Origin: Candidatus Nomurabacteria bacterium
GTDB taxonomy: Bacteria; Patescibacteriota; Minisyncoccia; Phycocordibacterales; UBA9973
Assembly (NCBI GenBank): GCA_026396015.1
Contig: JAPLXP010000003.1
Location: forward strand, 26,626 to 90,625
DNA length: 64,000 nucleotides
Direction of reading: 5' to 3'
Each line of letters begins with the position of its first letter. Position 1 is the stretch's first letter. The notes beneath the pieces are model-generated. The model was given only the letters and a program-made list of their open reading frames with translations. It was not told the DNA's origin and did no database searches. The position numbers and the translations under genes are program-made. Shown here piece by piece: positions 5,954 through 44,233 of the stretch.

Positions 5954-8900
5954 TTATTTGTAAAGTTCTTCTATCAAGTTTTTTGTGTATTGTTCAGCAC
6001 TTATGCCATCCATTTTTGGCATTTCATACTCTTTCCTACCTGTTGCTTCCATCACTCTTGACCCCAGTTTTTTTATTGCTAATGTGATTGAATCATTAGG
6101 ATGTTTGAACATAAAATTACTCAAATCTTTTATTCTACCCAAGTTAACATCTGGAGATTCCATGTCCCAACTATTTTGACCTTCTGATGATTGTGATATT
6201 TTTCCAAAATTTTCATACATCCACAATCTGTGTCCTATTTCTGGTGTCTCAATCAGTTTTGTGTCTGGGTCCAGGTTCATTTCCGATTTTATTTCTGATA
6301 GTGCAACCTTATCAAATTGCTCTCTAGAAATCCCCGCCACTTTTTCATCCATAGGGAATGCCTTTGAAGCATAGTTGAATCCAGAATGTATTTTGTTTTC
6401 AGTGGGGATATTCTCTGCTGCTACCTTTGCTTTATTTTCAGTTATAACTTCAGCTACCTTATTACCCCCACCTGCTGATTTTAATTGAACAGGATCTGGT
6501 CCTGTGTGGGGTTGTGATGTTATCTCACCTACTTCATGGCCATTTATGTTGTGTGTTTCTCTGACAATAATATTTGAGTATGTCCCGTCTTCAAGTTTAA
6601 ATGATTTATCGTATGTATCTGCTGAATTTTCGAGAGATAGTTTATTTAATCCTGTTTGTTGAAATATTTCTTTACTTGCATTGCTGTTTGCCATATCTCT
6701 AGCATATTGTATATGTTCTAGGTCTGGACTCGTTCCTGTTGATATTGCTCGTAGTGTTTTTCCATCAGACTCATATAGAATACCTTTTTCCTTTAGGTCT
6801 TTTATTAATTCTGTGTAATTTTTCTCACCCAGTTGATTTTTTAAGTCAGCCAATTGAATATTTTGTATTTCGTGTATTTTTTCAATACTATTGAATCCCC
6901 TGAATGAATCTGCTCCAGCTGTAGCGCTCTCTATAACTGTATTTCCGGATGTGTGTAATATTGGAGTTTCTATAAAGTGATTTTTAATTGCGTAATCTTG
7001 TACTTTCAATAATTGAACTTGATCCAAGTGCCCGTCTGGCATTACCAACGGTTTATCGATTATGTGATTTTCCAATGCTATTTTTTGAAATAGTGAAAAT
7101 TGTCCCGGAGTTATTCCATATTTTTGTATATCACTAATAGAATTTAATTCTATTGAACCCCCTCCCCCTAATTGGGTTGGTACTTGGCCATTATCAAATA
7201 TATTCTTTTGTGAATTTATATTGTTTGATATTCCATGGGGTGCACCGTTTATGTTTGAACCCTTGTAATCAAACATCTTTCCATGGTAGTCGGCACCTTT
7301 TGAAATATCCTTGCCCCATTCAAATACATCGGATTCACCAGTCACTGGGTCCTTGAATGTCAGATTGCCTTGATCGTCCATGTGGAAATTTGCACCCTTG
7401 TGAAGCATGGCGGACTCATCTATTTGACCAGGTTTGAATCCACCGAATTCTTTTGCTAGGTCTGCATTACTTGTATTCATTATATGTTTTACACTCTCTG
7501 GTGCATTAGACATATCGGAACCCCATTTTTCAGCTACTGCATGCTTTAATTGACCAGCAAAATGAATCATACCTTGACCTCGGTCGATAGTCACATCTAA
7601 TCCATGACCTGCATCTGGTATTGGGAGTGTTTCTGGTGTTGGACTAGGTGTAGGCGTCACTCCGCCGTGCAACCATCTTTGGTAGTATTGACCAGCTACT
7701 GCACCAGCAAGACCTATAGCTGCTCCACGTACAACTGCACCCATTACTCTTGCGGTTCTCTTGTCTTCGTATATAGATTCTTGATAATTATCAAATCTTT
7801 TTATTCGATTGAGGCCATTTTCCGTAATATCATTACCGTCCTTATCTTTTTTTCCTGTTTTATAACTGTATAAATCCTCGATACCCTTCATCATAGGCTC
7901 ACCATTTTTATAGACAAGAAGAGCGGCAGTCCCTGTTGCTATTGCTTTGTTTAGTTCAAAGTTTTTTGCAATGTCATCTTTCTTTCCATAGTTTATAAAT
8001 CCTTTGTATTCTTTGTTGTTGATATAGTCTAGTCTAGATTTAATTCTTTGAGCCAAAACTTCTTTTTGTTCTGGGGTTTTTCCTTCTTTGTTTAATTCCT
8101 CAACTAAAAAGCTTATTTTTTTTATTTGATCATCGGCATTTATAAATCTATCTACTTTACTTTCTGAATTTTTTAAGCCAGCATTTTTTGCTTCGAGACG
8201 AGTCATTGATACTTGGTCTCCCTTGTAATCATCTTTTATACTTTTTTTACCAGTAAAAAAACCTCTAATACCTCCCCATATTGCGCCGCCACCATATGCA
8301 CCAACGGTGCTCTTTATTGCCATTCCTATCACTCCTCCACCTGCAAATGTAGTCAAATCACCTGTTAGTAATTTTTTATATGCTTTTTGGGTTGCGCTAT
8401 TTTCCAGTAATGCGGCTGCCTCTGGGTATTTACGAGTATAATTTAAATAATCAAAACCAAGCTCAGATTTTCTTATTGCATCAAGAGCCATCAATCGGGC
8501 TTCTTTTGCACCGTTACCTTGTGATAGGTAATGATTTTCCATTGAAGATATTAGATTATTTCGAATTGCATTATAGGCTGAGTCTATTTTTTGAAATTCT
8601 TTGTACTCATTACTTTTGAAAGGGTTTAGGCCATTTTTGTTTGCAGTTTTCTCATGTTGCCAATCTGTAGGCATCTTCATATATCTATTTGCAATTTCGT
8701 TGTATGCTCTGATCTGCTCTGCCTCTGCCCTCGTACTCATACCTTCGGGAGCCTTAAGAAATACTACCTCACCCGTCTGTTCATTTACTGTTAGGTTTAA
8801 TTCTTTAATTCTTGCCGAAATTTGACCAATAGTCTCAATATCTACACTATGTTCACCATTTCTTATTTGGCCTGCTATTGTTTTTTCAGCACTCGCCTTT

Positions 8901-10834
8901 TGGAAATTTTTTGAGAGACCATGTAGTACCTTCATAAAAATATTTTTATTTGCATAAGATGCAGCAACACGATCTTTTGTTAACTCTTCCATCTTTCGAG
9001 CATTTCTTTGGTTTATCTCCTCTAATACTAGAAGTTGCTCTCCAGTAGAAAGCTTTACGAATCCAGGTACATTTTCAAGGTCAGAAACTTTTAAACCACT
9101 AGAACCAAGATTTTTTGCCCATAGGGGTGACTTGTTTGCAGTGTCTAGCTTTAGTTTTTCTATGATATCAACCTTAACAGCCTCTACCTTTGCAGCTTTC
9201 GTTGCTTCTTTATCATCAAATCCACCATAATTTACAATCGCACTTTCTTTTTCTTCTTCTGCGTGAAATCCTCCAGTCGCCTCTATTACTTTTGCTCCAC
9301 TTCCTATTTCTGATTCATTTAAATCTTCAATTTTTGAAATATGCTCTGCACCTTTTTTGTGCTTTTTCTTCATGTCTTCAAGCTCTTGTGCTCTTTCGTA
9401 ATCTCCTGATTCTTGTGCTTTTTTTGATTCAGCATCTAGTCTTGCTATTGAATCTTTGTCTGCACCTGTTTTCTTTTTATCTAAAGCCACTAATGCTCTA
9501 ATGTTTTTTTCAAATAATTCTGCCGCTTCATAATCTCCTGACGCTTGAGCTGCTGCAGATTTTGCACGCAGGGATTCTATTGTGTCCTTACCACCCAATT
9601 CATGTGTTTTATTATTTATTTTTTTAGGTATTTCCATGGTATTTAAATCTTTTTTAACATCTTCTGGTTCGACTTTAGCTTCTTCTTTTGTATCTAAATC
9701 TTCTTTAATAATTTTTTCTTCAGTCACTACGTCTTCTTTTTTATCTTCTTCTGGTGTTTTTTTTGTTTCTTTTGCTTTCCTTTCTTTTTTTATTATTTCG
9801 TATTTATTTTTAAAGAGAAGTTCTTCCATCTTTTCCCTGTCTATGTTTACTGGTATATCTGCACCCTCTTCTTTGAATTTGATAGTCTTTTTTGTAGCGT
9901 TCAGTATTTCATATTTTTTACCATTCACCAGTACTGTATCTCCCTTTGATAAAAAAATATATTTTTCAGTTTTTCTGTAATCCTCGATCATTTTGATTAA
10001 GGTTTCTCTATTTATTGGTACTTCTTTACCTTCCCCTTTCAAGAATACCCTGTGTCTTGTTTCTCCATTTTTATTTGTCCAAGGTTTTACTGCTGTTACT
10101 ACGAATGTCTTTTCTGGCGGTATTATTTTAAGATAATTATTTATTTTCCTTACCAGACCTTCGCTTTCCATAACTGCCCCTTTTTTAATTTCAATGGAAT
10201 TGTTTGGTTTTTCAGCTTCTTTTGTTTCAGCTGGTTTTTCAGCTTCTTTTGTTTCAGCTGGTGTTTCTTCTGTTTTTTCTTCTTTGTATTCCATTTTAAT
10301 ATTGGGCGGTATTGTTATTGAGTCTATTGTTGGGTGGTGCTCTTTTTTATCTTCTTCTTGTTGCCTCTTTAATCTTTCTTGTGATTCTATCTGCCTTTTC
10401 TTTTTCTCTGCTTTTTTGTTCTCTCTATCTAATTCTTCTTGCTCATTTTTTAGATCATTTTGTTCTTTTATTTTATTTACTAGTTCTTGTCCTTCTTCGC
10501 GTACTTTTATCTTTTCCTCATCTAGTTTTTCTTTGTACATTTCTGCTGCTGTTAGGATGTCTGATATGGTCACTGTGTATGCCTTTTTTTCATCTGATTC
10601 ATTGGATGTACGCATTTTATCTTCAAGCATTTTTTTTGCCCTTTCAGGTTCTCCAGATAGGGCCATTTTTATGGCACCTTCAAAAAAACGATAAAAACCA
10701 AGTGTGATAGTACCCGTTCCTTCTTTTGTTGATTCTAAGTATTTTATTGTTTCTTGAATTTTTTGATCAAGTAGTTTTTTTTCTTGCTCTATTGTATTTT
10801 TGTGTACCACTACTTGTTCTGGAGTCTTTTCCAT
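5954..10834 (-). CDS. Giant (1626 aa) hypothetical protein with low-complexity and coiled-coil regions, TPR-like SGDYE repeats and glycine-zipper hydrophobic segments
   Basis: Single uninterrupted ORF. K/E-rich stretches, AETKEAEKP x2, SGDYEAAELF/SGDYERAQEL repeats, GGGVIGMAIKSTVGAYGGGAIWGGIRGFF and VMGAVVRGAAIGLAGAVAGQYY glycine-rich hydrophobic segments, TPTPSPTP linker. No catalytic motif recognised. Confidence 0.55.
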   Translation of the reverse strand: MEKTPEQVVVHKNTIEQEKKLLDQKIQETIKYLESTKEGTGTITLGFYRFFEGAIKMALSGEPERAKKMLEDKMRTSNESDEKKAYTVTISDILTAAEMYKEKLDEEKIKVREEGQELVNKIKEQNDLKNEQEELDRENKKAEKKKRQIESQERLKRQQEEDKKEHHPTIDSITIPPNIKMEYKEEKTEETPAETKEAEKPAETKEAEKPNNSIEIKKGAVMESEGLVRKINNYLKIIPPEKTFVVTAVKPWTNKNGETRHRVFLKGEGKEVPINRETLIKMIEDYRKTEKYIFLSKGDTVLVNGKKYEILNATKKTIKFKEEGADIPVNIDREKMEELLFKNKYEIIKKERKAKETKKTPEEDKKEDVVTEEKIIKEDLDTKEEAKVEPEDVKKDLNTMEIPKKINNKTHELGGKDTIESLRAKSAAAQASGDYEAAELFEKNIRALVALDKKKTGADKDSIARLDAESKKAQESGDYERAQELEDMKKKHKKGAEHISKIEDLNESEIGSGAKVIEATGGFHAEEEKESAIVNYGGFDDKEATKAAKVEAVKVDIIEKLKLDTANKSPLWAKNLGSSGLKVSDLENVPGFVKLSTGEQLLVLEEINQRNARKMEELTKDRVAASYANKNIFMKVLHGLSKNFQKASAEKTIAGQIRNGEHSVDIETIGQISARIKELNLTVNEQTGEVVFLKAPEGMSTRAEAEQIRAYNEIANRYMKMPTDWQHEKTANKNGLNPFKSNEYKEFQKIDSAYNAIRNNLISSMENHYLSQGNGAKEARLMALDAIRKSELGFDYLNYTRKYPEAAALLENSATQKAYKKLLTGDLTTFAGGGVIGMAIKSTVGAYGGGAIWGGIRGFFTGKKSIKDDYKGDQVSMTRLEAKNAGLKNSESKVDRFINADDQIKKISFLVEELNKEGKTPEQKEVLAQRIKSRLDYINNKEYKGFINYGKKDDIAKNFELNKAIATGTAALLVYKNGEPMMKGIEDLYSYKTGKKDKDGNDITENGLNRIKRFDNYQESIYEDKRTARVMGAVVRGAAIGLAGAVAGQYYQRWLHGGVTPTPSPTPETLPIPDAGHGLDVTIDRGQGMIHFAGQLKHAVAEKWGSDMSNAPESVKHIMNTSNADLAKEFGGFKPGQIDESAMLHKGANFHMDDQGNLTFKDPVTGESDVFEWGKDISKGADYHGKMFDYKGSNINGAPHGISNNINSQKNIFDNGQVPTQLGGGGSIELNSISDIQKYGITPGQFSLFQKIALENHIIDKPLVMPDGHLDQVQLLKVQDYAIKNHFIETPILHTSGNTVIESATAGADSFRGFNSIEKIHEIQNIQLADLKNQLGEKNYTELIKDLKEKGILYESDGKTLRAISTGTSPDLEHIQYARDMANSNASKEIFQQTGLNKLSLENSADTYDKSFKLEDGTYSNIIVRETHNINGHEVGEITSQPHTGPDPVQLKSAGGGNKVAEVITENKAKVAAENIPTENKIHSGFNYASKAFPMDEKVAGISREQFDKVALSEIKSEMNLDPDTKLIETPEIGHRLWMYENFGKISQSSEGQNSWDMESPDVNLGRIKDLSNFMFKHPNDSITLAIKKLGSRVMEATGRKEYEMPKMDGISAEQYTKNLIEELYK

Positions 10835-11034
10835 ACTTAAATTATACCACTATTTATATAGCCTATCAAAGTTTTATCTGTATTTTTTATTTTTCTAAAA
10901 TAGGGTGAATTTTGCCATCTGTGCATAACTATGGTTGACGAGCACCCCACCCTGGGGTACCATATATAGATAAGGGGTTCGCCTCTTTAGATACTGGAAA
11001 GTGGATAAATACCAGACGATGACAGCCAGACCGA

Positions 11035-12288
11035 ATGACCACATTTCTTATGCAATCATTTTTCTCTAAAAAGGAGACTTTGAGCAGTAAACTCTCAGAC
11101 ACGAAAGCCAATTCTCCAAAAATAGCCTTATTTTATAAAGCCTCTGTGGTAGGGGTGACTTTTTTGACTGTGACTACAATAGGAGCATTTATGTATCCTC
11201 ATACAGTATCTGCAAGTTTCTTTGGTGATATTTTAGACAATATTGTAGGCAATACTACCCAAGCTGTGCCCATCCTAGTAAACCCAAATAATTCGCAAAC
11301 AGTCCCTCTTCTTGAATCAAATCTAACTCCAGAACTAAAGAATACAGTTACAGATTTAAGTCAAGGGACTGTAGGTGAGCAGGCAATAGAGACTATTGAA
11401 GGTGCAAATACTGGCCGAGATATTGAAAAATATGCAACTTCTGCTGCTATTCGTAAATATGTAGTCAAAAAAGGTGATTCTATAGATAGTATTGCTCGCA
11501 AATTGAAGGTTTCAAAGGATACTATCGCCTACGCTTCAGATTTGGATAAGGGTGAGTCTCTAAAGGTTGGCCAAATATTGGCTGTTATTCCTGTGGATGT
11601 GCCAGTAGAAAAGACTGATAAGGCAGAAAAAGTAGATAAGGTAGAAAAAACAAAACAAATTGCTGATAAAAACGACAAAAAGAAGGAAACTGCTGTAGTT
11701 GTATCAGAAAAATCAAAGAAAATTGTCGCAGTTGCACCTGTAGTAGACGATGAACCTGAAAAGCCTGTAGTCGTACCGACTACTCCGGCACCTATAGCTA
11801 CTCCTGCTATCGATGTGAATAATACAGACTCAACTGTAAATAATCAGCCAGTTGAGCAGACTACTCCGACAGGACAGCCAAAAGGTACTATCTCAAATGG
11901 TTATATATGGCCATTTCCAGCTGGTGTAGGACGTATCTCTCAGGGTAAACATGCAGATAATGCTCGGGATTTTGCGGCACCAAAGGGTACACCTGTATAT
12001 GCAGTCCATGATGGTACTGTATTGATCGCTCATCCAACTGGATATAATGGAGGATATGGATTATACGTGGTTATCGACTTTACAGATGGACGCCAGGCAA
12101 TATTTGGCCATATGAGCAAGGTGTTGGTAGGGCCAGGTGATGTGGTAAAGCAGGGTGATGTTATTGGTCTTGTTGGTTCTACTGGTCATTCTACTGGTCC
12201 ACACTGTCATATTGGTTGGCATGGTACAGGTGGTGATCCTTATGATGGATTAAAAGTTAATGCGACAGATTTTATTTCAAATGACTAA
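11035..12288 (+). CDS. LysM-domain M23 family metallopeptidase (cell-wall endopeptidase)
   Basis: N-terminal TM. LysM region (YVVKKGDSIDSIARKLKVSKDTI...GQILAVIP). C-terminal M23 signature (GTPVYAVHDGTV...GHMSKVLVGPGDVVKQGDVIGLVGSTGHSTGPHCH). Confidence 0.8.
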   Translation: MTTFLMQSFFSKKETLSSKLSDTKANSPKIALFYKASVVGVTFLTVTTIGAFMYPHTVSASFFGDILDNIVGNTTQAVPILVNPNNSQTVPLLESNLTPELKNTVTDLSQGTVGEQAIETIEGANTGRDIEKYATSAAIRKYVVKKGDSIDSIARKLKVSKDTIAYASDLDKGESLKVGQILAVIPVDVPVEKTDKAEKVDKVEKTKQIADKNDKKKETAVVVSEKSKKIVAVAPVVDDEPEKPVVVPTTPAPIATPAIDVNNTDSTVNNQPVEQTTPTGQPKGTISNGYIWPFPAGVGRISQGKHADNARDFAAPKGTPVYAVHDGTVLIAHPTGYNGGYGLYVVIDFTDGRQAIFGHMSKVLVGPGDVVKQGDVIGLVGSTGHSTGPHCHIGWHGTGGDPYDGLKVNATDFISND

Positions 12289-12562
12289 AAAAATTATTTC
12301 AATCTTTATACTTTGTTCATTTATCCTTGGATATAGTCCGATGCTGGCTTCTGCTGCAAAGACTACTAAAAAAGTGACAGTAGTAAAGAAAAAGAAAAAA
12401 GCTAGAAAAGAGAAGCTCACTCTTAACCCACCATTATTTACACTAGAGACAGCTCCCCATTCCCCAAGGCCTATCGCTCGCGGTAAAAGGAAGTCAACTA
12501 AAAAAGTAGCAATCAAAAAACCAGGTACACCCTCAAAAGTAGTAGCTACAAAGAAAAAATAA
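12284..12562 (+). CDS. Small secreted lysine-rich basic protein
   Basis: Signal peptide MTKKIISIFILCSFILGYSPMLASA followed by a K-rich tail. Overlaps the end of the peptidase gene. Confidence 0.4.
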   Translation, partial: TKKIISIFILCSFILGYSPMLASAAKTTKKVTVVKKKKKARKEKLTLNPPLFTLETAPHSPRPIARGKRKSTKKVAIKKPGTPSKVVATKKK

Positions 12563-12808: not shown

Positions 12809-14380
12809 TTAATTTTGAGTGCGGGGGCGGTATTGGAGGGCTTCGAGGATATGAGGAGTGGTGATGCGCTCACTACTCTCTAGATCTGCGATTGTGCGGG
12901 CAAGTTTGATCACACGGTGATATGCACGGGCTGAGAGTTGGAGGCGCTCTGCGCTACTATGTAGTATCTCCCTCACTTCGGGTGATAGAGGTGCAAAGGT
13001 GTTCAATTCTTTTACATTCATCTCACTATTTGTTTTTATATTTCTCGTAGTGCTTTTGAATCTCATTTCCTGAATGTTACGGGCGCGAGCTACACGCTCC
13101 TTGATGGTCTGTGTACGATCACCCTCCACACCCTCACTTGCAAGCTTGTCGTAATCTACCGATGATACATTCACCCAGATGTCGATACGGTCGAGGATCG
13201 GTCCTGAAAGTTTTCTGTTGTATCTATCCAGGTCCATTGGTTTGCAAATACAAATTTTTTTCTTGTCACCACGATTGCCACATGGGCATGGATTCATCGC
13301 AGCTACGAGAATAAAATTTGAAGGAAAAATTGCAGAGCCTCGTGCACGAGAGATGGATACGATATTATCTTCGAGTGGCTGACGGAGTGACTCGAGAACT
13401 TTTTTTTCAAATTCTGGGAACTCATCTAAAAATAAAACTCCTTTGTGTGCGAGAGTGACCTCACCTGGTTTTGGATTTGCTCCACCTCCGATCATCGATA
13501 CGTAGCTCGCAGTATGATGTGGTGCACGGAATGGTGAATCAGTCACGAGTGCTCCATCGAGTAATCCGACAACAGAATGTATTCCAGTAATTTCCAAAAT
13601 ATCTTCCTTGGATAATTCTGGTAGGATGTGAGAGAAGACTCGTGCGAGCATCGTCTTGCCTGTACCAGGTGATCCACTCATCGCAATGTTGTGTCCACCG
13701 GCAGCTGCGATTTCCAGTCCTCTTTTTGCACCCTCTTGGCCACGGATGTCAGAAAAATCTATTGTATGTTTTTTATTTTCAAAAATTATTTTTGTCTCGG
13801 GTGTAGGTGTGATTTTATTTTTCTCTGGCTCTAATAAATTTCCTTTTTTATCACGTCGCGGGGTAGATAGATGGTCAATGACTTCGCGGAGATTTCTCGC
13901 TCCAAATATTTTTATCCCCGACACTAGTGCAGCTTCACTCGCATTCCCGACCGGTAAAAATATTTCTTTATAGCCTCTTTTCTTCGCCTCCTCAGCCAGT
14001 GGTAGTGCACCTTTAATATTTTGTAGTTCACCGTTGAGTGAAAGCTCTCCTAAAAATATTTTTTCCTCAGGGTCAAAATCTATCTCACCTGCTGATAGTA
14101 AATATGCTAGCGCGATACCGAGATCAAAGTACGGCCCCTCCTTTTTCAAATCTGCTGGAGAGAGTGAGATGACTATTTTTTGATTTTGATTTTTTGGGGA
14201 ATTGAATCCCGAATTTTTTAGAGCTGAACTCATGCGGTCCTTGGATTCATCGACTGCCTTGTCTGGTAATCCGACAAGAGTAAAAGCATGGAGTGTACCC
14301 TTTGTGATGTCCACTTCGATAGTTACTACTTTGCCTGAAAGTATTTGTGTCTGCGCAGAATATATTCGCGAGAATGACAT
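12809..14380 (-). CDS. comM: ComM/YifB-family Mg-chelatase-like AAA+ ATPase
   Basis: N-terminal Lon-protease-like domain, Walker A (SGSPGTGKTMLA) and a ChlI-type C-terminus. Overall architecture is YifB/ComM. Confidence 0.85.
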   Translation of the reverse strand: MSFSRIYSAQTQILSGKVVTIEVDITKGTLHAFTLVGLPDKAVDESKDRMSSALKNSGFNSPKNQNQKIVISLSPADLKKEGPYFDLGIALAYLLSAGEIDFDPEEKIFLGELSLNGELQNIKGALPLAEEAKKRGYKEIFLPVGNASEAALVSGIKIFGARNLREVIDHLSTPRRDKKGNLLEPEKNKITPTPETKIIFENKKHTIDFSDIRGQEGAKRGLEIAAAGGHNIAMSGSPGTGKTMLARVFSHILPELSKEDILEITGIHSVVGLLDGALVTDSPFRAPHHTASYVSMIGGGANPKPGEVTLAHKGVLFLDEFPEFEKKVLESLRQPLEDNIVSISRARGSAIFPSNFILVAAMNPCPCGNRGDKKKICICKPMDLDRYNRKLSGPILDRIDIWVNVSSVDYDKLASEGVEGDRTQTIKERVARARNIQEMRFKSTTRNIKTNSEMNVKELNTFAPLSPEVREILHSSAERLQLSARAYHRVIKLARTIADLESSERITTPHILEALQYRPRTQN

Positions 14381-14402
14381 AGGTTCATTATAATATGAAT
14401 TT

Positions 14403-14551
14403 TAAATTATTTAAATAGCTTCTCTCAAAAAGCATGAATATTTTTTTGGTAAAAAATTTCTCTGCTCGTCGATCAAGAAAATAATATTCGTAAACTCATT
14501 TATTTTCTAATCTCCTGTGCAAGACTTTTTTCAAGAACTATTTAAATAATT
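14403..14551. ncRNA. Copy A of a three-copy structured-RNA-like element (novel; strand unresolved)
   Basis: Terminal helix aaattatttaaatag / ctatttaaataattt (perfect 15 bp). Internal hairpin atttttttGGTaaaaaat. Conserved core ...ctctgctcgtcgatcaagaaaataatattcgtaaactcatttattttctaatctcctgtgcaagactttt. Lies 23 nt 5' of the comM start. Confidence 0.45.
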
Positions 14552-14552
14552 T

Positions 14553-14581
14553 TTACCAATAAAAAAATCCGCAATTGCGGA
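14553..14581 (-). terminator. Rho-independent terminator of dksA-like gene
   Basis: aaaaaaatccgcaattgcggattttttt palindrome with flanking A/T runs. Confidence 0.5.
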
Positions 14582-14589
14582 TTTTTTTA

Positions 14590-14931
14590 TTACATACAAT
14601 TTTTACAAGTCAGTGCAGATGGGTTTGCTTCGATGCGGTCTTCTTCAATCTTACCTCCGCATGTATCGCATACTCCATAAGTCCCCTCCTCTATTTTTAG
14701 TAATGCTTTGATGGTTGTGTTTAGTTTTTTTACGAGCACATTGATGAGTGAAGATTTTTCTTCGTAGTCTTCACTGCGGTCATCCATGTCACTCTCGTCA
14801 GCTTCAGTAGCACCTGAATCATCACTGACTGCTTGCCATTCACCAGTCTCTGAATTCTTTTTACCCAAGCCAGAGAGCTCTTCTTCTAATAACAATTTCT
14901 CTGTTTCAAGTTGTAGTTTATATTTTTCCAT
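14590..14931 (-). CDS. DksA/TraR-family C4-type zinc-finger protein
   Basis: C-terminal CDTCGGKI...CKNCM four-Cys finger. Coiled-coil N-terminus. Confidence 0.65.
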   Translation of the reverse strand: MEKYKLQLETEKLLLEEELSGLGKKNSETGEWQAVSDDSGATEADESDMDDRSEDYEEKSSLINVLVKKLNTTIKALLKIEEGTYGVCDTCGGKIEEDRIEANPSALTCKNCM

Positions 14932-14967
14932 AAATAAATTTTAACACTTTAACCTAAAACCACAAGG

Positions 14968-15852
14968 CTACAAGGGTTTTATGTTTTGTGTAACTAGCCT
15001 TACTAATATTTCACGAATAGAATCTTGGTCATCTGTTATTACTAATTTATCTTTACCTAAGAACATATAAGTGAGTAATTCTTTTCCATTTTCATCTCTC
15101 AGTACTCTGGAATCTTTGTTTTCAATGATCTTGTCTGACCAGGGTGTTTCAAAGATGCTCTGCGAGCCTATTGAAACGTCTGTTTGGAATAGTGTAAACA
15201 TGTCGGAAAGGATATTGGATTCCCATGAAAGCATTCCTGCGAATGATTGATTGTAGTCATTTGTCTTCAATATTATAAACAAATGATTCTTTGCATTGTT
15301 GTTGTAAACACCAATCATGAAACTATTGTCCAAGGATCTAGATAATGCACCGGGCATATTTACTCCGAGTAGATTCAAGAATGTCGGAGTGTCCATAATC
15401 TGTGATACACCGTTGACTGTAGTGATTGGAATTATTGATGCAATTTTATTATTTTTAACTTCACCCTTGCTCGCATTTATTATCGCAGTGGCCATATCAT
15501 TTTTGTTCGTGATCGCGGTGACATCTAATAGTGTTTGACTGTCTCCGTGAACTAGAGTTTCTATTTGAATTTTTGGTTGAGATACTTGCGAAGCTTCTTT
15601 ACCTTTTTGAATCAAAAATATTGTTCCCCATATCGCAAGAGCTACCAAAAATATTCCACCTATAACATAAAATATATTCATCGAGAATGCTTTCTTTGTC
15701 TCTACTACAATCTCCTCATTCTCACGTCTTGCCTTTTCTGCGAGAGCGATCTTGATGACAGTCCCCTCCTGCTCTCGAACAGCATCAGCCATGTCTGATT
15801 CGTAGGTGTGCAGTTGTCTTATTTTTTGATTTGCAATATTTTGTTCGTCCAT
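14968..15852 (-). CDS. Hypothetical single-pass membrane protein
   Basis: 294 aa. TM at IFYVIGGIFLVALAIWGTIFLI. No family recognised. Confidence 0.45.
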   Translation of the reverse strand: MDEQNIANQKIRQLHTYESDMADAVREQEGTVIKIALAEKARRENEEIVVETKKAFSMNIFYVIGGIFLVALAIWGTIFLIQKGKEASQVSQPKIQIETLVHGDSQTLLDVTAITNKNDMATAIINASKGEVKNNKIASIIPITTVNGVSQIMDTPTFLNLLGVNMPGALSRSLDNSFMIGVYNNNAKNHLFIILKTNDYNQSFAGMLSWESNILSDMFTLFQTDVSIGSQSIFETPWSDKIIENKDSRVLRDENGKELLTYMFLGKDKLVITDDQDSIREILVRLVTQNIKPL

Positions 15853-37318: not shown

Positions 37319-37609
37319 ATGATTGATTTTAAGAATAAAAATATTTTGGGCAAAATATTAATTGGTTTAGTTATTTTTTCTATTGTTTGTTCTTATTTTG
37401 GTTTTAAATATTACAAAAAAATTGCCGCTCAAAATAGACTTAATAAAAATATCCAACAGATCTCAGATTCAGCCTTGAAAGTTAAGGTTTCAGAAGACCA
37501 AAAACTACAATCTATCAATGAACTATCTAGTCAATCTTCTGAAAAAATATCTCCTGAAGAAGCATCAAAGCGTGAAGCTGAAATTATTAATCAATTAAAT
37601 TCTAAATAA
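37319..37609 (+). CDS. Small membrane-anchored coiled-coil protein
   Basis: TM at ILIGLVIFSIVCSYFGF. Stop overlaps the start of the next gene. Confidence 0.4.
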   Translation: MIDFKNKNILGKILIGLVIFSIVCSYFGFKYYKKIAAQNRLNKNIQQISDSALKVKVSEDQKLQSINELSSQSSEKISPEEASKREAEIINQLNSK

Positions 37610-37610
37610 T

Positions 37611-40187
37611 ATGCGTATTCGTTCTATATTGATGTCACCCTTATTGCTCTCTTTAGTCTTTTTGCTATCTATTTTTATGGGTAGTTTCAAGGTTGAGGCT
37701 GCCTCTGTGTCAAATGATTTGTTTGGAGCGGCATATTCTAATAACATAGGCCCTGTTTCCTTTAATAATTGTGCTAGCTCTGACCCTGCTAGTTGTAGTG
37801 GACAATCTTACAAAGTGACTACTTTTTGGGATTCAAGTAATCCTAATTGGACATATTTAACTGGGTACGCCTGGAGTGATAGTATTGGCTGGATCGCTTT
37901 TTCAAATAGCTATGTGTCTACTTCAGGTTGCCCACCAATTCCTAATTGGTATAGTTGTCAGATTGCCTACAGTACCAATACTGGTGTTATCTCTGGATGG
38001 GGTCGTGCTGTTTCGTATGGTGATGGCTGGGATGGTTGGATAAACTTTAGTGGTGTCACTGTAGGTAGTGCTGGGCCTTCTGGAATCAGAGCCTTGTCTG
38101 GTAATGCTTGGGGTTCAGATATTGTTGGTTCATTGAATATGTCTGGCGTAAATATAAAGGAAACACCACCTACTAGCTCAGTAACATTGGTCGCAAGTCC
38201 TAATCAAGTTGGTCCTGATGGTAGTGGTGCTAGTAATCAAACTACATTGATATGGTCAGGTCAAAATGTGACTAGCTGTACAGCATCAGCTTCTTCTTCA
38301 AGAGGTGATTGGACCGGCCCTCTCGGTACTAGTGGTACAAAAGTTGTTCAAGTTGGCCCAAGTGTTACATATTCTATAGATTGTATAAATAATGTTACCA
38401 ATCAAGTTGCATCAGCTAGTGCTCCTGTGACTACTGGAGTAGCACCTAGTGATGATCTTGATGTAATTTTCCTTAATTCATTTGGTAAAACTATCAATGT
38501 TAGTAGTGTTGGTACTTGGAGTAATACGATCACTGCTATATTGACTAGTCATAGTGGTGCTACGAATGTGTCACTTTTTATAGATCCTAATTCTGGAGGC
38601 CCTAATCCTTCAGAAATTACTGATTTGAGTAATTACAATATAAAAGTGTATAGCTCTTATAATTTTAATGTTTCGGGTCAGTGTAGTGGAAATGTTATTT
38701 TTAGCAGTGCTAATCCTCAATCTTTTTCAATTCCCGCTCGAGAAGTGTATTGTGTTGAAGTTAAATCAAAACTTCCAGTATTGCCACCGACAGGTCCTTA
38801 TGGTAGCTATTACAATTTATTCTTGGTTGCTACCAGTCAAAATGTTACTACACCGGTTAATACTCCATTTGGTGGTAATGGTTTTCAGGTTAAAGTTACA
38901 AATAATACACCAACACTTACTTTTGTTGCTAGTACTACTCCGAGTAGTGGATTGCCTTACACTGGAGGGCCCGTTAGATTAAATTGGGATAGTACAAATA
39001 CCACAGATTGTACTGCAAGCACTAATTGGTCTACTTGGGCCGGTTCGCCTACTTGGGCTGGTGCAGGTATGACACCGAAGAAGCTTGGTGATGTGAAGGG
39101 AACGGCTTCAGGTAACATTACCAACACGGAAACATTTACTATTTCTTGTAATTATATTGGTTCACCAACTCCAATTACAGCCAGCGTTGTCGTAACTGTT
39201 CCTCCTGATCCTGCGTTACCGACTGTTAGTCTGACTGCAAGTCAAACTAAATTTACTGGGTCAATAGGTAAACCTACATTGTCTTGGACTAGTACAAAAG
39301 CTGTGAGTTGTGGTCCTGAAAGTTGGACAAAAAAGACATCTACTAGCGGATCAGAAGTTGTGACTGTTAATACTAGTACTACTTTTAATTTAACTTGTTA
39401 TAACTCATCCAATGGTTCAACTACAGATACAGTAAAAATTACAGTAATTCCAGGTCAGTTGCCAGAAATATATATGTCGGCATCTCCAGATACTCTGGGC
39501 ACAGGTGGAGGAAATACTGTCATATCTTGGGACTCTAGACCATATGGTACTTCTTGTGGTAGTCCAACTATCGGTGGTAGTGTGTCATCTCCTGCATGGA
39601 CAACAAAAACTTCTGCATATGGCTCACAGAGTGGCTCACAGAGTGTTTCTCTGACGACAGGGTCTACTTATGGCATTAGTTGTTCTAATTCCTTTGGAAC
39701 AACAAAATCTTCTATTACTATTCCAGTTGCAAATACTCCACCAGCTCCAGCAGTACTAATGCAGGCCACTTTGATAAATGGAAATAATTATAAAATATCA
39801 TGGAGCAGTACAGACACAACGTATTGCGGAAACCCAACAGTGTCACCTGCATCTTCAAACCCTTGGACTACAAAAGATACAGTTGATGGTTTTGAAAATT
39901 TGTCCATCAGTGTTAATACATCTTTTGGAATTACTTGTTATAACTCAAATGGAGATTCAGCTATAGATAATGTGAGTGTGACTCCTGCTCCACCTATTCT
40001 TCCAAATATAATTATGTCAGCAAAACCCCATTCTCTGGGCACAGGTGGAGGAAATACTGTCATATCTTGGGACTCTAGACCATATGGTACTTCTTGTGGT
40101 AGTCCAACTATCGGTGGTAGTGTGTCATCTCCTGCATGGACAACAAAAACTTCTGCATATGGCTCACAGAGTGACTTATGGCATTAG
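37611..40187 (+). CDS. Giant secreted Ser/Thr/Gly-rich surface protein with tandem Ig-like repeat modules, N-terminal part (likely one gene with 40045..42891)
   Basis: Signal peptide MRIRSILMSPLLLSLVFLLSIFMGSFKVEA. Repeated ~90-aa modules with W(S/D)S...C and F.I.C.N motifs. Ends at a stop created by a 32-bp length difference inside a 540-bp tandem repeat. Confidence 0.6.
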   Translation: MRIRSILMSPLLLSLVFLLSIFMGSFKVEAASVSNDLFGAAYSNNIGPVSFNNCASSDPASCSGQSYKVTTFWDSSNPNWTYLTGYAWSDSIGWIAFSNSYVSTSGCPPIPNWYSCQIAYSTNTGVISGWGRAVSYGDGWDGWINFSGVTVGSAGPSGIRALSGNAWGSDIVGSLNMSGVNIKETPPTSSVTLVASPNQVGPDGSGASNQTTLIWSGQNVTSCTASASSSRGDWTGPLGTSGTKVVQVGPSVTYSIDCINNVTNQVASASAPVTTGVAPSDDLDVIFLNSFGKTINVSSVGTWSNTITAILTSHSGATNVSLFIDPNSGGPNPSEITDLSNYNIKVYSSYNFNVSGQCSGNVIFSSANPQSFSIPAREVYCVEVKSKLPVLPPTGPYGSYYNLFLVATSQNVTTPVNTPFGGNGFQVKVTNNTPTLTFVASTTPSSGLPYTGGPVRLNWDSTNTTDCTASTNWSTWAGSPTWAGAGMTPKKLGDVKGTASGNITNTETFTISCNYIGSPTPITASVVVTVPPDPALPTVSLTASQTKFTGSIGKPTLSWTSTKAVSCGPESWTKKTSTSGSEVVTVNTSTTFNLTCYNSSNGSTTDTVKITVIPGQLPEIYMSASPDTLGTGGGNTVISWDSRPYGTSCGSPTIGGSVSSPAWTTKTSAYGSQSGSQSVSLTTGSTYGISCSNSFGTTKSSITIPVANTPPAPAVLMQATLINGNNYKISWSSTDTTYCGNPTVSPASSNPWTTKDTVDGFENLSISVNTSFGITCYNSNGDSAIDNVSVTPAPPILPNIIMSAKPHSLGTGGGNTVISWDSRPYGTSCGSPTIGGSVSSPAWTTKTSAYGSQSDLWH

Positions 40188-42891
40188 TTGTTCTAATTCC
40201 TTTGGAACAACAATATCTTCTATCCCTATTCCAGTCGATAATACGCCTCTTCCTCCTTCTGTGTCCATGCAAAAAACATTGATAAGTGGAAATAATTATA
40301 AAATATCATGGAGCAGCACAGATACAACATCTTGTGGAAATCCAACATCAATACCTATATTGTTTGGTGCTAATTCTCCGAACCCTTGGACTTCACAAAA
40401 TGCAACTACTGGTTTTGAAAATTTGACTATTGAAACGAATACATCTTTTGGAATTACTTGTTATAACTCAAATGGAGATTCAGCTACAGATAGTGTGAGT
40501 GTGACTCCTACTCCTGTCACACCCGAAATATCTATGTCTATATCTCCGGCAATCTTGCCTGCTGGTGGTGGAAATTTTACTGTTTCTTGGACAAGTGCAA
40601 ATACTGTATCTTGTCATGCCGTGACTCCTGTTGATTGGACTACAAAAACATCAACATCTGGATCTGAGAGTATGACAATCGGTGATAATCCTGGAACTTA
40701 TGACATAGTAATATCTTGTTCTAATGCTATCGGTGTACTGGCAACAGTAAGTAGTAGGATTAGTGTCCCTGAGCGTCCTAAATTGAGTGCAACAATTTCT
40801 GTTACTCCCGTCGTAGGAGGAATGACAGATATATCTTGGAAAAGTGAGGGAACTAATAGTTGTAGCGCCACTTGGACAGAATATCGGGCCACAAAAGGAA
40901 CACAAAGGAATGTGCTGGTTCGTGGGTCAACAGAATTCGGCATTACTTGTTTTAATGGAGAAAAGAGTGTGACAGCTTCGACTATTGTGGTAGTAGGTGG
41001 GGGAGAAGTAACAGTTACCTTGAGTGCTATTCCTGCTTTTTCTGGTGGAGAGGCTACTCTTGTCTGGGAATCTACAGATACTGGACCTGGACCTGTTTCT
41101 TGTTATCAAAATAATTCAAAAGAAAACATTAATTGGAGTTCTTGGGCAGGAGCTACCACTGCTGGTAGTGGTTATGCAAAAGGGGATGTTGCAAAAACAG
41201 ACACATTTAGTATTACTTGTAAGGATGTAAACAGTCCAGATTCTAAGGCATCTACAGCATTTGTTTCTATTTCTGTTGTTAAATCAAATCCTATTTCTGC
41301 TTCATTGTTTGTCTCACCTTCAGCCCTGTCTTCTCCTGGAAATGTTGATTTGAGTTGGAATAGTATTGGAACTGTGAGTTGTACTCCAAGTTGGTCAAGC
41401 TCAAATTTTGCTACTAGTGGCACTGAGACTGTCGCTGTGAATAATAAAACACAATTTACTGTTGTTTGTACTGATGGCAAGAGTAGTTTTACTACTGCTT
41501 CAGCTACTGTATTGGTTGGTGGTTCTTCCTCTGGTATCACATTTAATACAAATATTTATGCCAACCCGAATGTTTTATATGAAGTAGGAACAACAAAAAT
41601 AACATGGAGTTCTGGTTCTAATGCTACTTCTTGTGTAAAAGATTGGATGGATCCTTTAAATACAGCTACTAATGGCACAGATACTTTGAATGTATCAAGT
41701 ACAAAACTTTTTACTGTCACTTGTTCTGATGGTTCGGGAAATGAAGAAAAATCTTCTGTATCTGTCGTTGTAAAGACTCCCTCTAAACTTCGAGTGTCTA
41801 TCTCAGCGACACCTTCTTCTAGTTTTGGTAGTCGCTCTGTAGTGGGTAGTGGTGCTGGTCCTGTGACTCTCGACTGGTCAAGTATAAGTGCTACGGATTG
41901 TACTCCAAGTTGGAATAGTGCTAAAAAGGGTGATTTAAATGGCAGTGAGAGTATTTGGTTGTCTGAAACTACTACTTTTGTTATTGATTGTACTGATGGT
42001 AATCAGAGTGCCTCTGCATCTGTGGTTGTAAATATTGTGGATACTGATAAACCATTGATGAATAGTTCAATCTTTGCAAATCCACCATCCCTACCTTCTG
42101 CAGGTGGAATTGTAAAACTTATTTGGAATAGTATTGGATTATCGGATTGTTCACAGAGGTCTTCCTCAAATTCAGGCGGTAGAGACTGGACTGATTGGTT
42201 GGGGGCAGATCCTTCTACCGGTGGTAGTGCTAAAAAGTTCCTTTCTTGGAGTGATTTGTTTAGTATTACTTGTACTGGTCCAGAGCATTCTGCTACTACC
42301 GGTTTTGTAGTGTCTCCTTCAAGTAATTTTGACTTACATGTTTCATTGTCTACTGATAAGACAGTATTTGACACAAATGGAAAAGCCCTACTTTCTTGGG
42401 ATAGTAATGCAGATAATTGTACTCCAAGTTGGAATAGTTCAAAAAATGGTAAAAAGGATAGTGAACTTGTAAATATTACAGGTACAGAAACATTTACTGT
42501 TGTATGTCATACAAACAAAGCTGAGGCGAGTTCTACTATAACTGTGTTCATGGTTGATTCTGATGGATCATATGTCAATTTAAGTGCTACTCCGAGTACT
42601 CTTTTCGGGAAAGGTAAATCAAAGATTGTATGGAGTGGTAGTAATAATCTTAAGTGTGTAAAGGATTGGATGGATCCAGCAGATACAACATCAGATGGTT
42701 TTGATATCATAGATATTGTACAACAAAAAACATTTAAAATTTCCTGTACAGCAATAGGTAGTATCGTTCCAATCAAGAGATCTGTAACTGTCGGGTATAG
42801 AGAGGACCTAGGTGGTGGAGGAGGCTGCAAGGGGTGGTGTCCTATTTCTACTGGTTCTGCTATTCATAAATCAAAATACAAAGAAAGATAA
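40045..42891 (+). CDS. Giant secreted Ig-repeat surface protein, C-terminal part (continuation in +1 frame)
   Basis: Same module architecture repeated about 12 more times. First 133 nt are identical to 39493..39625 in the upstream ORF. C-terminus GGGGGCKGWCPISTG. Confidence 0.6.
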   Translation: MEEILSYLGTLDHMVLLVVVQLSVVVCHLLHGQQKLLHMAHRVTYGISCSNSFGTTISSIPIPVDNTPLPPSVSMQKTLISGNNYKISWSSTDTTSCGNPTSIPILFGANSPNPWTSQNATTGFENLTIETNTSFGITCYNSNGDSATDSVSVTPTPVTPEISMSISPAILPAGGGNFTVSWTSANTVSCHAVTPVDWTTKTSTSGSESMTIGDNPGTYDIVISCSNAIGVLATVSSRISVPERPKLSATISVTPVVGGMTDISWKSEGTNSCSATWTEYRATKGTQRNVLVRGSTEFGITCFNGEKSVTASTIVVVGGGEVTVTLSAIPAFSGGEATLVWESTDTGPGPVSCYQNNSKENINWSSWAGATTAGSGYAKGDVAKTDTFSITCKDVNSPDSKASTAFVSISVVKSNPISASLFVSPSALSSPGNVDLSWNSIGTVSCTPSWSSSNFATSGTETVAVNNKTQFTVVCTDGKSSFTTASATVLVGGSSSGITFNTNIYANPNVLYEVGTTKITWSSGSNATSCVKDWMDPLNTATNGTDTLNVSSTKLFTVTCSDGSGNEEKSSVSVVVKTPSKLRVSISATPSSSFGSRSVVGSGAGPVTLDWSSISATDCTPSWNSAKKGDLNGSESIWLSETTTFVIDCTDGNQSASASVVVNIVDTDKPLMNSSIFANPPSLPSAGGIVKLIWNSIGLSDCSQRSSSNSGGRDWTDWLGADPSTGGSAKKFLSWSDLFSITCTGPEHSATTGFVVSPSSNFDLHVSLSTDKTVFDTNGKALLSWDSNADNCTPSWNSSKNGKKDSELVNITGTETFTVVCHTNKAEASSTITVFMVDSDGSYVNLSATPSTLFGKGKSKIVWSGSNNLKCVKDWMDPADTTSDGFDIIDIVQQKTFKISCTAIGSIVPIKRSVTVGYREDLGGGGGCKGWCPISTGSAIHKSKYKER

Positions 42892-42905: not shown

Positions 42906-43442
42906 ATGAAAGAAAATAATAAAAAAAATAATATAGAAGACAATAATTATAATACTCGAGAATCTCTAGTAGTAATTCTAGTGGGGATTCTTTTCTTTGG
43001 AAATGTTATATTTGCGGAACCTTCTTCTACTCCACCATCTGGTAATCCTGATATCCCAATCAATGCACTTGCATTGCCTCAGTATAAAGAGGGTGAGGCT
43101 ACAAATGGTTATGTAAATAGAGCACTCGGGGTAGGGTATACTCCAGGTTCATTGCCTGTAGGTGTTACACTTGGTGTTTTTGGTCAAATGAAAATTGGAA
43201 CACTCTCTGGGACATCTGATGGTATGTCTGTATTTGGGGATATGAGAGATATTAATACTACGGTTTTGTGTCAGACTAGTCATACTTATAGTAGTCACTC
43301 AACACCTTGTGGGGCTGCGGGCACCAATAATACTAGTGATGGAAATGTAATTGTTACAAGTTTGAGCGGAAGTGGCTCGAGTACTTCTGTGTGTGTGCAG
43401 CTAGATAATGAAAATAGAAAACAATTAGTACGTTGTCCATAA
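42906..43442 (+). CDS. Small membrane-anchored fibre-like protein, paralog 1
   Basis: N-terminal hydrophobic anchor. Shared ALGVGYTPG...VTLGVFGQMKIGT motif. Ends LVRCP. Confidence 0.5.
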   Translation: MKENNKKNNIEDNNYNTRESLVVILVGILFFGNVIFAEPSSTPPSGNPDIPINALALPQYKEGEATNGYVNRALGVGYTPGSLPVGVTLGVFGQMKIGTLSGTSDGMSVFGDMRDINTTVLCQTSHTYSSHSTPCGAAGTNNTSDGNVIVTSLSGSGSSTSVCVQLDNENRKQLVRCP

Positions 43443-43447
43443 AATAT

Positions 43448-43807
43448 ATGTCAAAATCTTTAAAAAAATCACTATATACAATATTATTAGGCCTTGGTGT
43501 CGCATGGGTGTCTTCATTGGCTCCAGTTGTTTTTGGTTTTAATTACACTCCTATATACAAGAATAATCAAGTTCAAGAAAAATTCGGCTCTCTTGCAATT
43601 GGTAAAAATTCAAACCCTCTACCTTCAGTAAAACTAGAAGTTCCCGGGATTGTTGTTGCTAATGGATTTATCTCTAGTGGGGCAGCCGGAGTGAATATTT
43701 ATGGAAATCTTCAGGTTAAAAGGTTATTTTTAGATAATTTAACTGCTACTTCAACTCCGAGTCCTGTGTGTTCTGATACTAACGGTAATTTGATTAATTG
43801 TCTATAA
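43448..43807 (+). CDS. Small membrane-anchored fibre-like protein, paralog 2
   Basis: Anchor LYTILLGLGVAWVSSLAPVVFG. LAIGKNSNPLPSVKLEVPGIVVANGFISSG. C-terminal Cys pair VCSDTNGNLINCL. Confidence 0.5.
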   Translation: MSKSLKKSLYTILLGLGVAWVSSLAPVVFGFNYTPIYKNNQVQEKFGSLAIGKNSNPLPSVKLEVPGIVVANGFISSGAAGVNIYGNLQVKRLFLDNLTATSTPSPVCSDTNGNLINCL

Positions 43808-43816
43808 TTTAAATTT

Positions 43817-44233
43817 ATGATTAAAATTTTAAGAAACAAAAAGATATTTCCAGCAACCATTATTTTATTAGGATTTTTATTGTTCGCGAGTGTCACATAC
43901 AGTTATACTGCTTATAATGCTAGTTGTTCTGTTGCTGGTTGTAATTTAGGGCCAATAAATGAAGGCGATCAGCCTCAGTATAAAATCGGACCATTGGCAC
44001 TAGGAAAGGCGTCCGATCCAGTTTCCGGTGCTAGTTTGGATGTTTCAGGGACAATAAATGTTTCTAGTTTGTTGTCTTTTGGTAACATTACAGTAAATAA
44101 CCCCTCAGACAATTCTCTTGGTAATTATAGTGCTAGTAATATGCAGATTGATAATTTTTACAATTCTGGTGCTATTAAACGCCCAGTGTGTACAGATCAA
44201 AATGGTAAAATATCTATCTGTTCTTCAAATTAA
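43817..44233 (+). CDS. Small membrane-anchored fibre-like protein, paralog 3
   Basis: Anchor ATIILLGFLLFASV. LALGKASDPVSGASLDVSGTINVSS. C-terminal VCTDQNGKISICSSN. Confidence 0.5.
   Translation: MIKILRNKKIFPATIILLGFLLFASVTYSYTAYNASCSVAGCNLGPINEGDQPQYKIGPLALGKASDPVSGASLDVSGTINVSSLLSFGNITVNNPSDNSLGNYSASNMQIDNFYNSGAIKRPVCTDQNGKISICSSN

Follow-up and report, generated by a model that had tools for sequence, protein, structure and literature searches.

Two long open reading frames (ORFs) overlap on the plus strand of a metagenome-assembled genome (MAG) of Candidatus Nomurabacteria, a lineage of the Candidate Phyla Radiation (CPR), raising the question of whether they are two genes or one and, if one, whether the break between them lies in the DNA that was sequenced or in its assembly. 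The locus was studied within a window of 64 kb (GCA_026396015.1, contig JAPLXP010000003.1), to which all coordinates refer unless another locus is named. ORF1 covers 37611..40187 in frame 0 (858 amino acids, aa) and ORF2 covers 40045..42891 in frame +1 (948 aa), and NCBI models each as a hypothetical protein of its own, MCX6755875.1 (836 aa) and MCX6755876.1 (910 aa). A sequence-only reading of this DNA had proposed one giant secreted protein of a CPR organism, interrupted within a tandem repeat by either an assembly error or a genuine frameshift; the source record agrees with the host, and these two alternatives turn out to be the right pair to weigh. We show here that ORF1 and ORF2 are two halves of one gene for a secreted protein of ~1,770 aa built from immunoglobulin (Ig)-like modules, and we lean, by somewhat more than an even balance, towards a real and very recent deletion as the cause of the break, with an assembly artefact as the weaker contender.

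The evidence for a single gene comes from its relatives. Repairing the frame in silico after position 40173, either by re-inserting 32 nucleotides (nt) that one copy of the tandem repeat holds and the other lacks or by adding back only the last 20 of them, yields one open frame of 1,770 or 1,766 codons, respectively, which upholds the single protein first proposed and slightly enlarges its estimated ~1,760 aa. The repaired 1,770-aa protein aligns with its ortholog P0001, a single ORF of 1,413 aa, at 57% identity over its full length, signal peptide and final residues (...IHKxKYKER) included, and the only large gap, of ~360 aa, corresponds to the four modules of the tandem repeat (A1-B1-A2-B2). 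Synteny extends over the ortholog's locus (L001), in which nusA on the opposite strand, the gene of a 96-aa membrane protein, the giant gene and the genes of secreted proteins of 178 aa and ~120 aa follow one another as in the window. P0020 (966 aa), a second relative, likewise holds the same N-terminal domain and C-terminal motif as P0001 in a single ORF, as do more than 40 complete relatives of 300-1,750 aa, in which this N-terminal domain (hereafter the head) and the C-terminal motif lie within one ORF. Relative to the intact orthologs P0001 and P0020 the gene is thus disrupted, and the frameshift splits apart both conserved ends of the family architecture. The annotation needs correction at its 5' end as well, as MCX6755875.1 begins at M23 (37677 instead of 37611), so that the signal peptide is cut away; the start at 37611 is kept in the ortholog, and the stop of the upstream gene ends 2 nt before it. 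NTX85_00850 and NTX85_00855 are therefore better read as one surface protein gene of ~1,770 aa with its true start at 37611, the parts of which, apart from the tandem unit, are as follows.

37611..37700, plus strand: Sec-type signal peptide, MRIRSILMSPLLLSLVFLLSIFMGSFKVEA/AS, read from the sequence by its basic n-region, Leu-rich core and VEA/A cleavage site
37701..38180, plus strand: N-terminal non-repeat W-rich domain (head) of 160 aa, with four beta-hairpin repeats of the G[YW]AWSxxIGWIxF type
38187-38423, plus strand: module M1, from the module alignment
38424-38918, plus strand: atypical region of ~165 aa between M1 and M2, with its own Cys pair (C358, C381) and without the module motif
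38919-39437, plus strand: modules M2 and M3, from the module alignment
40522..42786, plus strand: modules M4-M12, orthologous one to one to M4-M12 of P0001
42787..42891, plus strand: C-terminal tail GGGGGCKGWCP...IHKSKYKER followed by the stop, with the terminal [FYW]-x-E motif of the family

The signal peptide had been recognised from the start and is conserved in P0001, where the hydrophobic N-terminus is kept. The count of about 20 modules given earlier was too high: we find 16 canonical W...C...C modules, namely M1 and, after the atypical region, 15 more of 73-90 aa, and the remainder is made up by that region and by the non-repeat head. The modules follow the pattern L.W.S...C....W.....G....v....tF.i.C, each with a conserved Cys pair, and match no Pfam or NCBIfam model. 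Structure prediction, run on A1-B1 with AlphaFold2 (AF2), gave a mean predicted local distance difference test score (pLDDT) of 84, and the Foldseek matches of this model are tandem Ig/FN3 pairs; in keeping with the Ig-like fold suggested earlier, the modules are predicted to be disulfide-bearing Ig-like beta-sandwiches. The AF2 model of the head domain reached a pLDDT of 82. The head has no match in Pfam, NCBIfam or PDB sequences, profile searches included, and a Foldseek search of its model against PDB and BFVD returned nothing convincing, with query-normalised template modelling scores (TMq) of at most 0.37; the few higher target-normalised values stem from short Ig/PKD domains. Scans with Pfam and NCBIfam detected none of the known surface anchors (LPXTG, type I secretion system (T1SS) or autotransporter signals). 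Taken together, this architecture points to a probable cell-surface fibre or adhesin, in which the C-terminal motif would have a role in anchoring or assembly and may be a sorting signal.

The break lies within the tandem unit between M3 and M4. The duplication of 540 bp described earlier is real, its limits being corrected from 39461..40000 and 40001..~40540 to 39465-40004 and 40005-40527. The identity reported between 39493..39625 and 40033..40165 also holds and is in fact longer, as 39493-39633 equals 40033-40173 over 141 nt and, beyond the indel, 39666-39705 equals 40174-40213 over a further 40 nt. The 32 nt extra in copy 1 were confirmed and placed at 39634-39665, where they are partly a 12-nt tandem repeat, and the resulting frame shift does create the stop at 40185. 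The features concerned are these.

39465..40004, plus strand: copy 1 of the tandem unit, 540 nt (180 codons), with modules A1 (39465-39722) and B1 (39735-39977)
40005..40527, plus strand: copy 2 of the tandem unit, 523 nt (540 - 32 + 15), with modules A2 (40005-40230, bearing the deletion) and B2 (40243-40500)
39634..39665, plus strand: segment present in copy 1 only, 32 nt, GCTCACAGAGTGTTTCTCTGACGACAGGGTCT
39620..39645, plus strand: 12-nt tandem repeat TGGCTCACAGAG in 2.2 copies (GSQSGSQS), copy 1 only
40173..40174, plus strand: deletion junction, frame 0 to +1, with residues GSQSVSLTTGS missing, including the predicted strand 56-63
40185..40187, plus strand: premature stop codon TAG of ORF1, the frameshifted end reading ...SQSDLWH
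39493..39705 (copy 1) and 40033-40213 (copy 2), plus strand: homogenised tract, with no differences against a synonymous divergence (dS) of ~0.5 elsewhere
40187..40211, and also 39679-39703 in copy 1, plus strand: 10-bp hairpin (GTTGTTCTAA...TTGGAACAAC) within the coding sequence of both A modules

The junction reads CAGAGTG followed directly by ACTTATGG. Because the first 12 nt of the 32-nt segment are the second copy of TGGCTCACAGAG, the difference between the units resolves into an in-frame duplication of 12 nt plus 20 nt, and for the latter, which are unique sequence, no flanking direct repeats or microhomology were found. Tandem Repeats Finder (TRF) reported only two repeats, the 12-nt unit in 2.2 copies and a 24-nt unit in two. 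The two alleles can be told apart in either copy, as A2-specific bases flank the shared tract upstream (40005-40032) and downstream (T at 40214). Joined to this T the deletion junction reads CACAGAGTGACTTATGGCATTAGTTGTTCTAATTCCTTTGGAACAACAAT, and the same string with the ending ...CAACAAA would place the deletion in A1; an intact A2 reads GGGTCTACTTATGGCATTAGTTGTTCTAATTCCTTTGGAACAACAAT, or GGGTCTACTTATGG ahead of T 40214, and an intact A1 has the ...CAACAAA ending instead.

The history of the unit can be read from its modules. Among the other modules, M4 is the best match to A (43%) and M3 the best to B (35-42%), and the order M3-[A-B]-[A-B]-M4 suggests repeated duplication of an M3/M4-type pair. 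Outside the identical tract (codons 0-9 and 80-184) the two units differ at 24% of positions, with a dS of ~0.5 and a ratio of non-synonymous to synonymous divergence (dN/dS) of 0.44-0.9, whereas codons 10-79 hold no difference at all; an identical run of 181 nt would arise by chance with P ~1e-22. Further evidence comes from Logan assemblies, which were built independently with k=31. Contigs from two runs, SRR20698644 and SRR20698640, match the window without a difference over 12.2, 6.5, 4.9 and 3.9 kb, and ~17 kb of window sequence flanking the repeat is identical (100%) to Logan contigs. Contigs from four samples end at 39522, and those of SRR20698644 and SRR20698640 resume at 40457; across the same strain and strains that are 96-97% identical to it, the point of resumption lies at 40444-40457. 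The breaks at 39522 and 40457 fall 30 nt within the shared tracts, which is what a de Bruijn graph demands and indicates that the repeat structure is present in the reads. Contigs of ERR12084942 and ERR12084902, which represent such 96-97% identical strains, stop at the same base despite an A-to-C change within those 30 nt. Since they still end at 39522, both copies must carry this single-nucleotide polymorphism, which points, if indirectly, to concerted evolution by gene conversion. On these comparisons, the A1/A2 tract of ~210 nt is kept identical by gene conversion within units that are otherwise old.

Selection on the two halves was compared between the window and the ERR strains. Over the ORF1 part dS is 0.07 and dN/dS 0.30-0.49, and over the ORF2 part, with 57 synonymous and 37 non-synonymous changes, dS is 0.107 and dN/dS 0.19. 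ORF2 is open in both strains, over 2.7 kb, with no further lesions and no relaxed selection. To judge from these substitutions, translation of the downstream half went on for practically the whole period over which those strains have been separate. Purifying selection on ORF2 rules out an old pseudogene and leaves only a very recent disruption as compatible with the data. The sequence-only reading had noted neither the gene-conversion tract around the indel nor the purifying selection that still acts on the downstream half.

Against this background, the explanation that we favour over an assembly artefact, and to which we give a little better than even chances, is a deletion that is real in the sequenced DNA, very recent, and either fixed or segregating. 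The lineage would have lengthened the stalk by inserting two copies of the two-module unit A-B between M3 and M4, and copy 2 would then have lost 32 nt within the converted tract, shifting the frame so that translation ends at 40185. The head and signal peptide (ORF1) would thereby be cut from nine modules and the C-terminal motif (ORF2, without a signal peptide), and the result would be a newly arisen allele, truncated or deprived of function, of a gene that selection otherwise maintains. The deleted GSQSVSLTTGS takes in strand 56-63 of the module, which speaks for a lesion and not for a designed switch. What favours such a deletion is, first, that no k-mer is common to the sequences left and right of the junction, and a graph assembler would need reads containing the junction to join them; in addition, the flanks are free of errors when set against an independent assembly, and the collapse of a tandem repeat would normally drop a whole unit of 540 nt, not 32 nt.

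The same observations that tell for a real deletion tell against its main rival, in which an intact A2 (with 20 or 32 nt present) and one gene of 1,766-1,770 aa were spoiled during assembly or consensus building, be it by repeat resolution, gap closing or polishing in the 141+40-nt repeat or by threading a rare variant into copy 2. We consider this artefact possible and clearly the less probable of the two, and several points weigh on its side, some of them also against the deletion. The indel sits in the only long exact repeat of the gene, inside 141+40 nt of the kind where assemblers and polishers err, and the region resists assembly, as the k=31 contigs built from the same data are interrupted on either side of the repeats; positions 39523-40456, the junction among them, are covered by no second assembly. 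An assembler meeting a bubble in the shared tract may give one branch to each copy. The orthologs are intact, the deleted residues form a core strand, and the 2.7 kb of open, selected ORF2 fit an artefact equally well as a very recent event. CPR genomes, moreover, contain few pseudogenes.

Searches for either allele in other data returned little. Exact look-ups of ORF1 (as 858 or 836 aa) and of its last 50 aa before the premature stop gave no recorded contig. A collection of 15 billion proteins contained neither the intact proteins of 1,770 and 1,766 aa nor ORF2 from its possible starts (948 and 935 aa), and held only the two NCBI products. Used alone as a homology query, A1-B1-A2-B2 returned nothing at E<=1e-3, and scans of genome and metagenome contigs returned only distant head-domain relatives (30-40% identity) and no close strain.

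If the deletion is real, it might be imagined to recur and revert. Conversion or unequal crossing-over between A1 and A2 would then toggle between a full-length and a truncated fibre, providing an on/off and length switch within a single gene of an ultra-small episymbiont, without simple-sequence repeats or a dedicated recombinase. The indel does lie where the two copies are demonstrably homogenised, and this holds for more than one strain. Were crossing-over to occur in the 40-nt tract beyond the indel, on its right-hand side, the gene would lose one unit and be in frame again; conversion by A1 would likewise reopen the frame. ORF2 is still under selection, and the gene encodes a surface protein in what is probably an episymbiont. 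Such a switch is conceivable but unsupported: the evidence is a single snapshot, neither inverted repeats nor a dedicated recombinase came to light, the tract needs no more than the concerted evolution usual among tandem repeats, and the deletion lacks the microhomology or repeat that would make recurrence likely. We therefore regard it as improbable.

More doubtful still, by a small step, is a frameshift that the cell tolerates, with ORF2 made either by +1 recoding near the TAG, aided by the hairpin, or separately from an ATG at 40084 or 40159. The dN/dS of 0.19 would agree with such expression, ORF2 encodes a hydrophobic stretch at its 5' end, of which the out-of-frame translation MVLLVVVQLSVVVCHLL could serve as an export signal, and in copy 2 the stable hairpin has the final base of the premature TAG as its first, within a 121-nt segment (40150-40270) that folds with z = -4.0. 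The hairpin is probably incidental, however, as the identical sequence is ordinary in-frame coding sequence in copy 1; GAC TTA TGG CAT TAG offers the P-site tRNA no +1 re-pairing and includes no slippery motif, the orthologs P0001 and P0020 are without the frameshift, and no Shine-Dalgarno-like sequence precedes the ORF2 starts. Moreover, A2 as encoded, without core strand 56-63, could not be expected to fold even if the frame were restored in translation. A programmed +1 frameshift is not supported, for want of a re-pairing site and because the orthologs are single ORFs, and the slipped-strand contingency switch suggested earlier is unsupported as well, since the site has no homopolymer or short repeat with a unit other than a multiple of three (its sole repeat has a frame-preserving 12-nt unit), the 32 nt have no flanking direct repeats, the frameshift is not a change in repeat copy number, and A2 lacks its core strand.

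Returning to a real deletion, the exported fragment of 858 aa would comprise the head and seven modules, the last of them broken and the other six intact, without the nine remaining modules and the C-terminal motif, and ORF2, having neither a signal peptide nor a ribosome-binding site, would be silent. The frameshift itself is an ordinary kind of event for a repeat-rich surface protein gene, unless both alleles coexist. We regard the CPR family to which the gene belongs and the evidence for gene conversion within the stalk as the more useful results, the conversion tract being an example of how such proteins lengthen their stalks and keep them homogeneous.

The family is large. The head domain was found in 1,173 cluster representatives at E<=1e-3, mostly from CPR, and wherever a source name is given it is that of a CPR MAG. 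Besides the window, 57 loci with the head domain were fetched, and identity in them is 30-40%, except for the L001 ortholog with ~59-66%. A typical member of 300-450 aa consists of a signal peptide, the head and one Ig-like module, and larger ones carry PKD or Ig domains. A shared C-terminal motif closes ~45 of 53 complete members, as ...LPLPEW[KR]E[VI]xP[FW] or, in shorter form, ...P-x-[FY]-[QKE]-E-x; in the window protein and in P0001 the last residues are ...KYKER. Some C-termini of the family carry an extra amphipathic tail, e.g., VIWLKKFLAMVSDFLNGFLKFQ. With their W-rich head, variable Ig/PKD stalk and conserved C-terminal motif, the proteins of this large CPR family are good candidates for structures of host contact. 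A second giant ORF elsewhere in the window (5954-10834, minus strand, 1,626 aa) was considered as a paralog and rejected, as it has no similarity to the Ig-repeat protein; it has no Pfam match either. Literature searches on the run accessions and on the head-domain motif found nothing.

The genes on either side of the giant gene recur in the family's genomic context.

37319..37609, plus strand: gene of a 96-aa membrane protein, the conserved upstream partner, which also precedes the ortholog in L001 and is identical in six Logan assemblies
42906..44233, plus strand: genes of three small secreted proteins (178, 124 and 138 aa) with the core motif P-x-N-x(5-6)-Q-x-K-x-G

In 30 of 58 loci the family gene adjoins secreted proteins starting ...FAWTEPTxxPPxGNVxxPxNxGxxxQxKxG, and the tail-fibre chaperone domain Peptidase_S74 occurs in some members of this neighbour family. 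The third small secreted protein differs in length between the window (138 aa, 43817-44233) and L001 (491 aa, 13657-15132), where it extends into an Ig-like module and a Gly-rich domain. Just past this gene, from 44240 onward, the 96-97% identical strains (L066-L068, 3795-4407) diverge completely from the window and carry a plus-strand ORF of 151-156 aa where the window has non-coding sequence and a minus-strand gene of 111 aa; this extra ORF was compared with the long third gene of L001 as a possible homolog and rejected. Type IV pilus genes were not found within this window. Among 24 loci of at least 8 kb, eight have pilB, pilC or pilin-like genes no farther than a few kb from the family gene (L003, where they follow immediately downstream at 7468-12312, L011, L026, L037, L041, L047, L053 and L054). 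Housekeeping neighbours (clpP, trigger factor, RNase Y, pyrophosphatase, nusA) recur in L001, L003, L006, L013, L020, L023, L026, L053, L058 and the window, and such a conserved neighbourhood across diverse CPR contigs suggests old, vertical inheritance.

Several known systems resemble parts of this picture. Neisseria opa and Haemophilus lic are contingency loci with simple-sequence repeats. They are alike in that a frameshift truncates a surface protein gene, and differ in that the sole repeat here is one of 12 nt and what was deleted is unique sequence. In the alpha C/Rib proteins of group B Streptococcus and in Mycoplasma Vsa, near-identical tandem modules vary by intragenic recombination, whole in-frame units being gained or lost. 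The modules are similarly homogenised and rearranged within the gene, whereas in our case a 32-nt out-of-frame piece is missing within a unit that is homogenised only in part. From CPR themselves, the Pam pili of Candidatus Mycosynbacter amalyticus are assembled from pilin subunits of 39-55 kDa joined by donor-strand exchange (bioRxiv 10.64898/2026.03.03.709456). In common with our protein they are Ig-like surface filament proteins specific to CPR and exported by Sec, and a tail-fibre-like gene lies nearby (bioRxiv 10.64898/2026.03.03.709456), but the window protein carries 16 modules in one chain; membership in the Pam pilus system was rejected, as no Pam-named NCBIfam model matched the window proteins in a library that includes at least PamR (NF058578). 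Finally, compared with fibrillar adhesins such as Salmonella SiiE, staphylococcal SasG/Aap and Bap-type proteins, the modules of the window protein stand outside Pfam/NCBIfam and bear a Cys pair, its head is without a known fold, it ends in its own [FYW]-x-E motif in place of an LPXTG, T1SS or autotransporter signal, and adhesion is putative. In overall plan it nevertheless follows these proteins, combining a signal peptide, a stalk of tandem Ig-like modules and a non-repeat terminal domain, and the BIg pair of SiiE (2yn3) is itself among the Foldseek matches of the modules.

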